DNA of 61,655 bases from an uncultured Methanosarcinales archaeon (GTDB lineage Archaea; Nanobdellota; Nanobdellia; Woesearchaeales; CALCXY01). The position numbers and the translations under genes are program-made. Positions 19,938 through 30,065 of the stretch are shown in pieces. Position 1 is the stretch's first letter. Every line of letters begins with the position of its first letter. The notes below the pieces were generated by a model. It made no database searches and had not been told where the DNA came from. It saw only the letters and a program-made list of their open reading frames with translations. The stretch spans positions 1 through 61,655 of the forward strand of contig CAYLOA010000005.1 in NCBI GenBank assembly GCA_964385185.1, in the 5' to 3' direction.

Positions 19938-20426
19938 ATGAAACCAAAACAACTTGGAATAGCAATTATTCTTCTCAGTATTACTGTAATTGTATTAATG
20001 CTTTCTTTTAAAGTTCAATTTGACAGTCAACAACAAAAAGCGTGTGCAAGTGCATGTGGGGATTCAGATTTGGATACTTGTGCCATAACTTCTTGCCCCT
20101 TTCATAATACAGGAGCTCTTGGATGGATACCGATTCTTGTAAGTATTTTAGTTGCAGGATTAGGCGGAATTGGTGTATTCCTCTCATTTTCAGGGGAGAA
20201 AAAGATCATTCACACAAAAGAATATGACTTGAGTGGGTTAGATGAAGAAGAAAAGAAAGTATTCCACCTCATAAAAGATAAACAAGATGGAATCTATCAA
20301 AGTAAAATTGTAGAAACACTCGATTCATCAAAAGTTAAAATTACTCGAATTCTAGATAAATTAGAACAAAAAGAGCTTATTGAACGTAAAAGAAGGGGCA
20401 TGACGAACATTGTAGTCCTACGTTGA
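19938..20426 (+). CDS. membrane-anchored winged-HTH (MarR-like) regulator with Cys-rich loop
   Basis: Two TM helices flanking C.SAC...C....CPFH; C-terminal GIYQSKIV...SKVKITRILDKLE.K.LIERKRRGMTN. Confidence 0.75.
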   Translation: MKPKQLGIAIILLSITVIVLMLSFKVQFDSQQQKACASACGDSDLDTCAITSCPFHNTGALGWIPILVSILVAGLGGIGVFLSFSGEKKIIHTKEYDLSGLDEEEKKVFHLIKDKQDGIYQSKIVETLDSSKVKITRILDKLEQKELIERKRRGMTNIVVLR

Positions 20427-20498
20427 AACTAGTTTCACCTTATACTTATAAAGCGTTTCATTCTTTATTTCTTGTATAAACTACACGGAGATGATACA

Positions 20499-20630
20499 AT
20501 GCAAAGCATAAAAATGTTACAAGTTTTAGTGGGAGTTACCTTACTTATAGGGTTGCTCAATTTATATGGAACCTTTGGGCTACAATCTAGCTTATCTTTT
20601 ATTATGGGACTTCTTATATTCCTCGCATAA
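20499..20630 (+). pseudogene. truncated dsbA paralog (N-terminal anchor only; 43-aa ORF)
   Basis: MQSIKMLQVLVGVTLLIGLLNLYGTFGLQSSL is 22/32 identical to the N-terminus of DsbA at 16142; GGAGA SD; the frame then runs into the antisense 3' end of the radical SAM gene. Confidence 0.75.
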
Positions 20631-23345: not shown

Positions 23346-24047
23346 TTACCCTCCCAAATAAACACTCTTAATCTTCTTATGTTTTACGATCTCCTTCCCA
23401 CCAGTTAAAGCAATATTACCATTTTCTAATAAATACGTTCTATCTGCCATCTCAATTGCTTTCTTAGCATTCTGTTCTACAATCAAGATACTTATTCCCT
23501 CTTTCTTCAAATCTTCAATAGTTTTGAACAATTCTTTCTGCAACTTAGGACTTAAACCTAAAGAAGGCTCATCTAACAACAGTAAACTAGGATCATTCAT
23601 CAAAGCTCTACCCAAAGCTAATTGCTGTCTTTGTCCGCCAGAAAGAGTATACGCTAAAGTATTCTCTTTTTCCTTTAAGACAGGAAACTTATCATACACA
23701 GCTTCCAATTTCTTCTCAACAATTTCTCTATCTTTAACCAAATCTCCACCTATCTCTAAGTTTTCTTTCACACTCAACTCACCAAAAACAACTCTCCCTT
23801 GAGTGACAAAGCTAATCCCTAACTCTAATAATTCATGAGTTTTAATTCCCATAATATCTTTTCCTTTGAATTCAATCTTTCCTTTGGTAACGTTTGCCAA
23901 ATCATAGATGGATTTAATCACCGTACTCTTCCCCGCACCATTAGGGCCAATCAGTGCAACAATCTCTCCTGCTTTGACTTCTACATTAACTCCTTTCAGA
24001 ACAGTAAGTTCCTCATACCCAGCTTCTAGGTTTTGTATCTTTAACAT
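23346..24047 (-). CDS. livF: branched-chain amino acid ABC transporter ATPase LivF
   Basis: Start ATG 24047; GPNGAGKS, LSGGQRQ, LDEPSLGL, VEQN. Confidence 0.9.
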   Translation of the reverse strand: MLKIQNLEAGYEELTVLKGVNVEVKAGEIVALIGPNGAGKSTVIKSIYDLANVTKGKIEFKGKDIMGIKTHELLELGISFVTQGRVVFGELSVKENLEIGGDLVKDREIVEKKLEAVYDKFPVLKEKENTLAYTLSGGQRQQLALGRALMNDPSLLLLDEPSLGLSPKLQKELFKTIEDLKKEGISILIVEQNAKKAIEMADRTYLLENGNIALTGGKEIVKHKKIKSVYLGG

Positions 24048-24072
24048 TTTTATTGGTTTTTTTGTAGTAGGT

Positions 24073-24115
24073 CTTAGCACCACCACCGGCACCCACAGGG
24101 TGCAGTGGTGCTAAG
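24073..24115 (+). repeat. ACA-triloop bulged hairpin element, copy B1
   Basis: CTTAGCACCAC[CAC]CG[G]CACCC-ACA-GGGTG-CA-GTGGTGCTAAG. Confidence 0.8.
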
Positions 24116-24120
24116 GACGT

Positions 24121-24165
24121 AATCACCACTACTGCTCACTGTGTGAGCCAGTAGTAGTGGTGACT
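24121..24165 (-). repeat. ACA-triloop bulged hairpin element, copy B2 (inverted to B1)
   Basis: Minus strand AGTCACCACTAC[TAC]TG[G]CTCAC-ACA-GTGAG-CA-GTAGTGGTGATT. Confidence 0.8.
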
Positions 24166-24180
24166 CAACATTATCCTCAA

Positions 24181-24906
24181 TTATCCTCCTAAATAAGCAT
24201 CCAAAACTTTTTTATTCTTTTGAATTGCTTTAGGTTTACCCTTTGCTATAACTTTCCCGGCATCTAACACATAGACTTCTTGAGCTAAATCCATAACAAA
24301 GTTCATATCATGTTCTATAATCAATATTGTCTCACCTTGTGCATGCAAATCTAACAACACATCCCGAATAACTTTTCGCAAAGTAGGATTAACTCCGGCA
24401 ACAGGTTCATCCAACATAAGTAAAGTATGTGGTTTAGCAATTGCAATTGCCAAATCCAACAATTTCCTCTGACCATAACTTAAATCGGTTACAAAAGTTC
24501 CAAGAGGTTTATCCAAATGTACTTTTGCCAACATTTCTTTAATTCTTTTATCACGAACAGTATCAAACACTAAAAAACTTTTAATCAAAGATTCATCATC
24601 TCCCATTGCTATTTGCAAATGATCACGTATCGTCAAATGCTTAAACAGTCGAACTTCTTGAAATGTTCTGCTAATACCCTTTTTACTCACCCTAAATCCA
24701 GCCATTCCACTAATATTCTCCCCACTCAACTCAACCATTCCACCATCTTGGGGAACTAATGAACTAATAACATTAAACAACGTACTTTTGCCACTACCAT
24801 TCGGACCAATTAATGCAGTAATTTTCCCTTTCTCAATCTCCATACTACATCCTTGGAGAGCCTTCACCCCTCCAAAATGCTTTGACACATTCTTAACAAG
24901 CATCAT
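24181..24906 (-). CDS. livG: branched-chain amino acid ABC transporter ATPase LivG
   Basis: GPNGSGKS, RTFQ, LSYGQRK, LDEPVAG, IEHDM. Confidence 0.9.
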   Translation of the reverse strand: MMLVKNVSKHFGGVKALQGCSMEIEKGKITALIGPNGSGKSTLFNVISSLVPQDGGMVELSGENISGMAGFRVSKKGISRTFQEVRLFKHLTIRDHLQIAMGDDESLIKSFLVFDTVRDKRIKEMLAKVHLDKPLGTFVTDLSYGQRKLLDLAIAIAKPHTLLMLDEPVAGVNPTLRKVIRDVLLDLHAQGETILIIEHDMNFVMDLAQEVYVLDAGKVIAKGKPKAIQKNKKVLDAYLGG

Positions 24907-28542: not shown

Positions 28543-29754
28543 CTAAACTTTCCTCACTTCTCCTTTTTCAGCATCAACAATAACTTTATCTCCATCTTTA
28601 AAAACAGAAGTAGCATTCTTTGTGGCAATAATACAAGGTTTCTTCATCTCACGAGCAACAATAGCCGCATGACATAATATGCCACCCATATCTGTTACAA
28701 AAGCTCCTGCTTTTTCCATAGCTGGAATATAGTTGGGATCAGTCATAGAAATAATTAAAACATCTCCTGGTTCTACCTTTTTCATATCATCAATATGTTG
28801 TAAAACTCTTGCTGTTCCTTCATACATACCAGGGAAGGCTACATTTCCTTCTACCAAATTACTATCAATTTCATTCGAGACAGAGATGAGTCCTTTAATT
28901 TCTTCCATAGTGGCTCTATCACTAATTTCATAGTGCTGATCATCTATTTGTATAGAAATCATACCTTGTTTTCTTTCTTGAATTAATGTTTTGTACTCTT
29001 TTCCTTCAAGTAATGATGACTCAACCTCTTTACAACTGAGATATTTTACAAGAAGTGGATCCATGTCCAATCTTTTTCCAATCTCTGAAAGAAGATTCCA
29101 ATGGATTGCCAGAGTCATATAAGATGTATCAACCCTAAAGGATCTCACATAGCCAAATACTTGGATTGTCTTTGCCAAAATTGAAAGTTCTTCCTGATCC
29201 TTAATTATTTCCATATACTTTACTTGTTCTTTTTTGAGATGATCCTCATCTTTTTTCATCTGATCATATTCTTTGTCTACATCAGAGGCAACAAACTCTT
29301 TGAGTTGTTCCTTATAATGTTCAAAGGTATAGGGCTCTTTCTCCAAATGAAATCCCCCAATCCACCCATACATGAGTGTATGATGCTTTAACATTTCTTC
29401 TACTTCTTTCCCTTCCATATCTAGTCCTTTCTTAACTTGGATAGCTATTTTAAGAAATGCCTCCTTATCTTCAAGGACAGATATTTTTTTGAAGGGCAAG
29501 GTCAAGGCAATATGATAATCATAATAACTCTTTTCAGGCAATTTCTTATCTTTGATATATTCTTTAAGCCGAGATTCAAACCTTTCTGTCAGAAACTCAT
29601 CAAAAAGATGAAGGCTATACATATAAGGAAGAAAATTAATAGATTTTTGATACATCTCTTTATACAGATCAACTAATTCTGTATTAGAATACGTACTCAC
29701 ATCTAACAGTTGATTTTTCCGAGCATAGGCTATTAATTCATTTCCATGAGTCAA
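28543..29754 (-). pseudogene. PEP-utilising enzyme mobile-domain protein, probably 5'-truncated
   Basis: C-terminal TDMGGILCHAAIVAREMKKPCII His-swivel domain; TTG start two codons after an in-frame stop, no SD, abuts an opposite-strand purL relic. Confidence 0.6.
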
Positions 29755-29759
29755 CTTTA

Positions 29760-30065
29760 GTTACATCAGATTTTAAACTCACAGGAGATCTTATCTATAT
29801 TGTTGGGGAAACACGAAATGAACTTGGTGCCTCAGAATTTTATTCCATGCATGATGAAACAGGAGCTAATGTACCAACAAGTGATTTTGAAGAAATAAAA
29901 GAGAATTTTAAGGCTCTGAGGGATATTTTGGATCGATCATATATTAATCAATCAGCTCAAAGTGTCCAAGAGCGAAAACAGAGGGCAGGTCCTTCAGAAA
30001 CAGAAGGAGCAGGACTCAAAATATTCAAAAATGGTGTTGACTATGCACGAGAAAATCTTCTTTAA
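29760..30065 (+). pseudogene. purL: fused relic of FGAM synthase genes (purL internal segment plus probable purQ C-terminus)
   Basis: VTSDFKLTGDLIYIVGETRNELGASEFY...GANVP matches PurL; the end EGAGLKIFKNGVDYARENLL* resembles the PurQ C-terminus. Confidence 0.65.

Follow-up and report, generated by a model that had tools for sequence, protein, structure and literature searches.

The spacer between livG and livF in this archaeal liv operon is occupied by two hairpins in opposite orientation, and it stands where the relatives carry a gene for a binding protein (SBP). The reading that we favor, at a probability of roughly 60%, is that this locus (locus B) is a compact inverted dimer of two subtypes of a dispersed, REP-like hairpin DNA repeat, located at a site of gene loss. 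The stretch of DNA analyzed here, which we call the window, is 61,655 nucleotides long and has a G+C content of 35%. The host of the repeat would be an AT-rich marine DPANN (Woesearchaeota/Nanoarchaeota-like) archaeon in which the family appears to behave like the REP/REPIN/BIME elements, and the dimer with its two short 5' extensions would constitute essentially the whole 133-nt spacer. What is new with locus B is the dimer form, the multiplicity within one genome as read from contig depth, the near absence of G-U pairs, and the link to a precise gene loss.

The first-pass annotation of this DNA had described two homologous units in opposite orientation, 5 nt apart, that fill most of a 133-bp livG-livF gap, and both the sequence and a repeat search bear this description out. 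The gap (24048-24180, 133 nt) contains at 24073-24165 two GC-rich imperfect palindromes that are homologous, bulged, and inverted relative to each other, and these cover 93 of its 133 nt (Table 1). B1 reads CTTAGCACCAC-CACCG-GCACCC-ACA-GGGTGC-A-GTGGTGCTAAG, and its ACA loop occupies 24095-24097 of the + strand. B2, read as its reverse complement, is AGTCACCACTACT-ACTG-GCTCAC-ACA-GTGAGC-AGTAGTGGTGATT. The B2 loop is TGT on the + strand (24140-24142) and becomes ACA on the minus-strand mRNA, so the loops that had been assigned to this message, ACA for B2 and UGU for B1, were correctly placed. In both units the outer stem leads to a 3-nt 5' bulge, which duplicates the triplet next to it, and then to 2 bp, a bulged G, an inner stem of 6 bp, and a triloop of sequence ACA; the two inner stems differ by compensatory changes (GCACCC/GGGTGC versus GCTCAC/GTGAGC).

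Table 1. Features of locus B, the adjoining genes, and the second family locus of the window (positions in the window).
Feature	Positions	Strand	Description and basis
A1 (locus A)	8829-8877	+	Same-family unit in the window; R1 71.9 bits; further hairpins to ~8945
livF	23346-24047	-	ABC ATPase, 233 aa, last operon gene; translation, NCBIfam LivF/UrtE matches
B1 5' extension	24048-24072	+	T-rich, GTAG at 24064-24067 (B1 tag); flank comparison, GTAG count, upstream survey, centroid fold
B1	24073-24115	+	"CAC" (short) subtype hairpin unit; covariance model R1 67.2 bits, E = 2.5e-19
Linker between B1 and B2	24116-24120		GACGT, 5 nt
B2	24121-24165	-	"TAC" (long) subtype hairpin unit; R1 69.8 bits, E = 3e-20
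Left spacer border	24166-24180	-	Second copy of the 9-10-nt tandem repeat GAGGATAAT; GTTGAG tag at the B2 5' foot
livG	24181-24906	-	ABC ATPase, 241 aa, ends ..AYLGG-TAA (stop at 24181-24183); ORF, translation, NCBIfam LivG/UrtD matches

The predicted folds are stable, at -26.2/-28.6 kcal/mol for B1 and -26.3 kcal/mol for B2. The minus-strand RNA of 24040-24200 folds as two hairpins with -62.3 kcal/mol, compared with -39.8 +/- 3.8 for 200 shuffles (z = -5.9; 0/200 shuffles as good), and a sliding fold scan over the window ranks B1 first, B2 third, and the locus A unit fourth among its strongest 50-nt folds. A single long hairpin of the REPIN type across both units was rejected, since it reaches -37.6 kcal/mol, compared with -52 to -56 for two separate hairpins.

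The two short flanks of the spacer are similar to what precedes other family copies on their 5' side: next to B1 the sequence is T-rich with GTAG and AGG, and next to B2 it is ..ATAATGTTGAG. This similarity suggests that nearly the whole 133-nt spacer is repeat-derived; the left border in particular is similar to the 5' flanks of L040 and L066. This border also contains the start of an 11-codon mini-ORF (24136-24171, minus strand; MLSHHYYWLTQ and a stop), which begins 4 nt after GAGGA and directly behind the livG stop and crosses the 5' arm and loop of B2. Its translation, if any, would melt B2, and it is probably a chance ORF. Across the livG stop runs a tandem 9-10-nt repeat (24170-24178 / 24180-24188), whose two copies are ATTATCCTC in the + strand and GAGGATAAT in the mRNA, and AATGTT occurs both in the left border (..GGATAATGTTGAG) and at the start of livF (..AAAAATGTTAAAG). 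These two features could be the footprint of a rearrangement.

The hairpin element had been called dispersed, and locus B does belong to a real dispersed family, further members of which lie in the window itself, in the same metagenomes, and on other contigs. A degenerate pattern that did not require complementarity (CACCA-N3-12-GGCWCNCACAGNGWGCAG) was run on genome contigs and metagenome contigs. It gave just 16 single chance matches in the genome contigs, in GC-rich bacteria, and 31 stretches in the metagenome contigs, 19 of them in contigs of 33-38% G+C that represent 12 distinct loci. At all 12 of these low-GC loci the positions left free by the pattern complement each other and the outer arms form pairs; the 12 high-GC matches have no such pairing. 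The covariance model R1 then recovered every pattern copy and two more units, which brings the family to 17 distinct units; these are spread over 14 loci on AT-rich contigs of marine archaea. A fixed-spacing pattern and an ungapped hairpin scan returned no family copies because the stems are bulged, and the family likewise went undetected in a general search for direct repeats. Rfam had no matches over the window and matched tRNAs only on ten element-bearing loci, and in a permissive Rfam scan of 23950-24300 all matches were far under the gathering score (the best, mir-583, at E = 0.19 and 19.6 bits versus 80).

The layout of B1 and B2 is constant across the family, from the outer stem through the 3-nt 5' bulge repeating the adjacent triplet, the two pairs, and the bulged G to the 6-bp inner stem, which closes on an invariant C-ACA-G loop region; by their triplets, the master subtypes are AAC, TAC, and CAC. 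In the alignment of the 17 units, 96.2% of the stem cells are paired, and double-sided changes affect 10 of 17 pairs, with 48 double-change cells versus only 2 G-U cells. This degree of pairing and covariation was reached by 0 of 500 shuffles, and slid controls collapse. Compensation that is almost purely Watson-Crick looks, as far as the alignment goes, like that of a DNA palindrome family with few master subtypes, not of an RNA-selected helix. The outermost stem pairs vary by locus but remain complementary; simple insertion of a fixed element does not account for them, which speaks against the reading that we favor.

All 17 units are intergenic. Many are placed between divergent promoters of the leaderless type or next to tRNA genes, which argues that mRNA is not the primary setting of the family. 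Seven of the 17 units have a GTAG no more than 14 nt 5' of the conserved stem (41% versus a 3.9% background; P ~ 2e-6), and the mirror CTAC 3' of the stem occurs in 1 of the 17. Other units lack GTAG or carry a variant (TTAG, CTAG, ATAG, or TTGAG), and GTAG is often partly paired in the stem. Two further ideas were set aside: a 5' extension conserved throughout the family, because the similarity is partial and confined to subsets, and TATA boxes upstream of units as promoters of the element, because these boxes are located -27 to -30 from neighboring leaderless genes.

Inverted dimers with the tags outside are found at most loci. Locus B has a "+ then -" arrangement with 5' tags facing outward, and L050 (13225-13347) and L061 (12164-12287) hold dimers of the same kind, with AT-rich linkers of 26-28 nt; the L061 dimer sits between two tRNA genes. 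At seven further loci (window locus A, L040, L041, L056, L057, L065, and L066) an inverted hairpin with a TGT loop comes after the ACA-loop unit and lies inside extra modules, making them composite. Di Nocera et al. (PMC3733652) describe HH dimers, with units 1-5 bp or 20-100 bp apart, as typical of GTAG-tagged REP families, and in those terms locus B would by analogy be an HH heterodimer with a minimal linker. Four of the composite loci (L056:2857-3025, L066:5399-5560, L057:996-1150, and L065:474-625) have a Y-shaped module of ~90 nt after the ACA-loop unit; its outer stem is ACTACTGG.../...CCAGTAGT, and it contains the inner hairpin CTTTACATTTCCAG..CTGGAAATGTAGA as well as the TGT-loop hairpin. 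These modules show compensatory changes between loci and no Rfam match, and from its sequence the module resembles an inverted unit into which a further hairpin is nested.

Contig depth indicates how many such loci one genome may hold. Contigs of four metagenome runs were aligned to 23700-24500 and their depth was summed. The summed depth is flat over livF and livG (16, 8, 49, and 6 in the four runs) and stands at 273, 99, 350, and 28 over the B1 core and at 136, 60, 303, and 23 over the B2 core, a 7- to 17-fold rise at B1 (16 to 273, 8 to 99, 49 to 350). In each run, 13-23 contigs match the hairpin cores only and then diverge into different flanks, several of which are those of L066, L044, L042, L037/L065, L051, and L040. 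The depths of the flank contigs track that of the window contig across runs (for example, 15.4 / 7.7 / 45.7 versus 16.1 / 8.1 / 48.8), and the unique coding flanks of L044 and L066 occur in the same runs as the window. The simplest reading of these sequences is that the other hairpin loci are further parts of the window's own genome or population, which would place ~10 or more loci in a single small genome. Of ten contigs that carry the identical livG, five terminate within the hairpin pair, and L011, on the livF side, stops within B1; such ends fit a repeat, and a palindrome alone could equally break assemblies. The spacer is fixed in the population, as the 133 nt are identical in five independent assemblies, though these are >99.9% identical overall, so the identity is uninformative on selection.

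The relatives show what once stood at the livG-livF site. The closest lineage (L001-L010) shares 88% identity with the window in LivF, 81% in LivG, and ~90% in Kae1, and the LivF and LivG trees both place the window and L001 as sisters (support 100/99). Synteny matches on both sides (ORFan-livH-livM-livG ... livF-cupredoxin-DoxX-lgt-radical SAM), and between livG and livF this lineage has a gene for a 346-348-aa Peripla_BP_6 lipoprotein (signal ..LAGC), with the livG stop overlapping the SBP start and the livF ATG directly after the SBP stop. The order livG-SBP-livF is also found in L018/L019 and in L082/L083/L084, which represent two deeper lineages, so a comparison of livG-livF spacing, as had been proposed, finds the SBP gene with abutting junctions in the sister lineage and in both deeper ones. 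Across the three, the SBP measures 346-354 aa, and the in-position proteins are orthologous (64-69% identity mutually versus 24-30% to other or upstream binding proteins). Because this order lies on both sides of the split between the window and L001, the ancestor had the SBP gene and the window lineage lost it.

On these gene orders, the hairpin dimer stands exactly at the site of the lost binding-protein gene and marks its loss. The window has no SBP homologue, and a collection of 5.8 billion proteins has no SBP orthologue at the 70-95% identity that this species would be expected to show, though a protein identical to the window's LivG is encoded on 13 contigs; the gene was thus probably lost and not moved. 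The 133-nt spacer holds no SBP remnant by local alignment, with a score of 19 that equals the shuffle mean, and R1 found no family copy on ~145 kb of relatives' contigs, including a relative's 40-kb scaffold. The suggestion of an inserted BIME-like element holds in part: a dispersed, BIME-like inverted doublet is there, but it was not inserted into a once-overlapping junction, since the relatives have an ~1-kb SBP gene at that place. The other possibility that had been envisaged, an ordinary terminator conserved identically in all relatives and lacking dispersed copies, does not apply, as the relatives do not have this spacer. The comparison gave no clean pair of filled and empty sites; the nearest relative is distant, with dS saturated, and a deletion followed by an insertion therefore cannot be told from a single event.

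L001 differs from the window lineage in other genes as well. Four additional genes, DUF411 among them, separate its radical SAM gene from the DUF7343 regulator, and it has intact purL and purQ beside the liv region, both of which the window lineage lacks (compared regions: window 20426-20614 and 29740-30065 versus L001:13453-15296 and L001:467-4374). No hairpin is present at the loss junction of purL/purQ or at that of the four-gene block, and by this comparison several independent gene losses appear to surround locus B, none of the others with a hairpin. At L001:15301-15337 there is an AT-rich hairpin with the family's outer-stem sequence only (CACCACCA ... TGGTGGTG) and an 18-nt T-rich loop (R1 E = 0.008-0.016), which may be a relic, a target-like palindrome, or a chance match.

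That the host is archaeal follows from several markers: the window's Kae1 is archaeal (TIGR03722, 4e-138), the nearest named LivF and Kae1 homologues come from Woesearchaeota/Nanoarchaeota MAGs, and element-bearing contigs encode the archaeal ribosomal proteins L40e and S27e (read by eye) as well as intron-bearing tRNAs. Contigs >99.9% identical to the window were found in Tara, seawater, and hydrothermal-vent metagenomes. The liv genes are still under constraint: dN/dS between the window and L001 is 0.06 for livF, 0.07 for livG, 0.08 for livH, and 0.11 for livM, compared with 0.065 for Kae1, where synonymous sites are saturated and the average spans both lineages. As constraint on the liv genes matches that on Kae1, the transporter has not simply decayed. 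The terminal branch of the window is 2.5 times that of its sister L001 in the LivG tree (0.20 versus 0.079) and shorter than that of L001 in the LivF tree (0.046 versus 0.093), and judging from these branches LivG may have evolved faster after the loss of the binding protein.

The position of the pair has potential consequences for livF. Its start is the ATG at 24045-24047, where the homologues (233-235 aa) begin MLxI.. and where the NCBIfam alignment runs from residue 15-17 of the longer ORF. The first genes in the window mostly have a TTTATATA/TTTAAA box centered 27-30 nt upstream of the ATG, an indication that most mRNAs are leaderless; some operon-internal genes have SD-like motifs (GGAGG type), and others overlap the upstream stop. 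The remaining liv junctions overlap, as had been stated, by 1 nt (ORFan/livH), 8 nt (livH/livM), and 4 nt (livM/livG). Upstream of livF there is no TATA box at -29, no SD motif, and no overlap with the upstream stop; on the mRNA the ATG is preceded by 25 A-rich, unstructured nt behind the two hairpins. In the relatives the livF junctions are coupled (TAGATG, TAGAAAATG, or a 1-nt gap), and by this comparison livF appears to have lost the stop/start translational coupling; it is a reasonable inference from the sequence that LivF synthesis is uncoupled from that of LivG.

Our results lead us to propose that the repeat would be spread or maintained at the DNA level, as a single-stranded hairpin or a cruciform, that some protein may read the invariant CACAG loop and the asymmetric bulges, and that the effect on the operon would be a by-product. 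LivF would then be translated from an A-rich, unstructured leader behind two hairpins of -25 kcal/mol, and the hairpins, if they form in the message, could additionally shield the upstream livHMG mRNA. Against this proposal, a crude scan of 815 reading frames of at least 90 aa in the examined sequence found no RAYT-like Y-x-x-N-P-V motif, and Pfam found no Y1_Tnp among ten window ORFans.

It is possible, if unlikely, that the dimer caused the gene loss, either by recombination between repeats that flanked the SBP gene or by an element-associated adjacent deletion that left a chimeric dimer. A CAC-type B1 beside a TAC-type B2 is what two different parental copies would be expected to leave, the replacement is precise in that the livG stop and the livF start are intact, the spacer is free of SBP sequence, and the 3' end of the relatives' SBP gene (TTGGTGTTGGTGTAG / ..GGTCTAG) resembles the unit arm GGTGGTGGTGCTAAG, a microhomology that could guide the junction. 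That microhomology was, however, noticed post hoc and lies in a low-complexity arm; moreover, hairpins flank the SBP gene in none of the relatives, and the purL/purQ and four-gene-block deletions took place with no hairpin at their junctions. We are doubtful of the bolder scheme of a REPIN-like replicator of DPANN archaea, in which a bulged ACA-triloop hairpin doublet would be spread by an archaeal enzyme acting on single-stranded hairpins and would itself contribute actively to genome reduction, by precisely excising or replacing entire genes between neighbors that stay intact, as at livG-livF. A role in the liv mRNA, for which the pair would have been retained as a decay barrier for livHMG or as an attenuator lowering LivF relative to LivG, seems to us improbable. 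Such a role would suit a pair inside a polycistronic operon with two stable hairpins predicted in its mRNA, a spacer that is identical in five assemblies, and a livF that has neither the coupling of all its relatives nor an SD motif or promoter; yet elsewhere the family lies largely outside transcription units and in both orientations, its stem changes are nearly all Watson-Crick swaps with few G-U pairs, unlike those of RNA-selected helices, and the near identity of the assemblies (>99.9%) leaves the spacer silent on selection.

The same scarcity of G-U pairs, together with inverted dimers that are typical of DNA repeats, makes it very improbable that the units are small structured RNA genes or parts of such genes, with locus B a pair of them between livG and livF. 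The strongly conserved architecture and covariation, the larger Y-shaped folds of the composite loci with their compensatory changes, and the many copies near tRNA genes and TATA boxes do invite that idea, but no Rfam family matches, the TATA boxes near copies lie at -27 to -30 as expected for neighboring leaderless protein genes, and locus B has no TATA box on either strand. We give almost no credence to the hairpins being integron-type attC sites or an ordinary intrinsic terminator. It is true that attC sites are bulged hairpins with a conserved structure and a variable sequence, that they have been reported in Nanoarchaeota MAGs (PMC9668308), that a gene is missing at livG-livF, and that one GTTGAGT at the B2 foot fits GTTRRRY, at chance level; against this, the family alignment and flanks have no paired RYYYAAC/GTTRRRY core at the stem bases, the units are inverted and do not form an array of one orientation, and there is no integrase among the window ORFans tested. 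The attC identity was rejected on the paired R''/R' core and the same-orientation array. On the mRNA, B1 is followed by ACCUACUACAAAAAAACC, an A-run, and no U-tract follows the hairpins, which makes an archaeal terminator unlikely; the intrinsic terminator was rejected on this point, and family copies also stand between divergent promoters.

The dispersed REP-like DNA repeat that we favor would have implications beyond this operon. REP/REPIN repeats and their domesticated transposases are regarded as bacterial, and a GTAG-tagged archaeal analogue would extend this biology to the other prokaryotic domain; a structurally analogous family in ultra-small archaea would also point to a hairpin-reading enzyme. 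Locus B may serve as a dated natural experiment, in which an ABC importer has been left with no in-operon binding protein and with its last cistron uncoupled, while the four remaining liv genes appear to be still under strong purifying selection despite the loss. It is relevant to the way in which DPANN symbionts reshape their nutrient uptake as their genomes shrink, and the 133-nt spacer compared with the junction of a relative would make a simple construct for studying the effects of hairpins on archaeal polycistronic expression.

Several known systems resemble locus B in part. The REP/BIME between the malE and malF cistrons of E. coli is an mRNA stabilizer. Like it, locus B is an inverted hairpin pair between two cistrons of an ABC-importer operon, with predicted stable mRNA stem-loops that would lie upstream of a less-needed or uncoupled downstream cistron. 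In contrast to malE-malF, the archaeal RNA decay machinery differs, locus B precedes an ATPase gene that is presumably needed in the same amount as LivG, and any such role would be a prediction from position and folding.

The ends of IS200/IS605 elements (Y1 HUH TnpA) also have subterminal bulged hairpins, which are read as single-stranded DNA, and no obvious target-site duplications, but their end hairpins share one orientation on one strand, unlike the two units of locus B. A partial TnpA of the IS200/IS605 family (NF033573, E = 4e-18) is encoded beside livF-PIN-MazE at L084:2332-2643 (minus strand) and L082:7530-7658, in a related Woesearchaeota-like lineage, and has its own hairpin, CCGCCCC-AAG-GGGCGG, just 3' of the gene. 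It was rejected as the enzyme of the family, being of another lineage, with an unrelated hairpin and no R1 match nearby, and shows only that Y1 HUH enzymes exist in the window's clade. Integron attC sites, reported in archaeal MAGs (PMC9668308), share with the family the conservation of structure over sequence, extrahelical bases, and a link to genes being gained or lost; the locus B family differs in lacking R''/R' core boxes, in being inverted and not tandem, and in having no cassette array and no IntI among the window ORFans tested.

The closest resemblance is to REP elements and their inverted doublets (REPINs, and the BIMEs of E. coli), which are mobilized by RAYT/TnpA-REP (PMC3116915, PMC3733652, PMC3479197). 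As in those families, the units are short imperfect palindromes, extragenic and multicopy in one genome, with subtypes that differ by compensatory stem changes; they occur mostly as inverted dimers with the tags outside ("HH" in PMC3733652), including heterodimers of two subtypes, and copies occasionally lie between cistrons of an operon. Of the conserved tag (GTAG or CGTC) that REP elements have 5' of the stem, GTAG is enriched in the locus B family, although many units lack it, carry a variant, or pair part of it. Unlike REP elements, the locus B family resides in a DPANN archaeon, where the REP/REPIN/BIME class is defined by a bacterial host; it has GTAG in 7/17 units only, an invariant CACAG triloop region, a conserved asymmetric bulge (the repeated triplet and the G), and outermost stem pairs that are locus-specific, and its locus B dimer stands at the site of a lost gene. 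Given the archaeal host, a GTAG that is not universal, a loop and bulges of its own, and no motif of a RAYT, the defining partner, in the 815 frames scanned, membership in the REP/REPIN/BIME class cannot be claimed for the family. As an analogy, inverted REP pairs of the BIME/REPIN kind would be the best match available for locus B.
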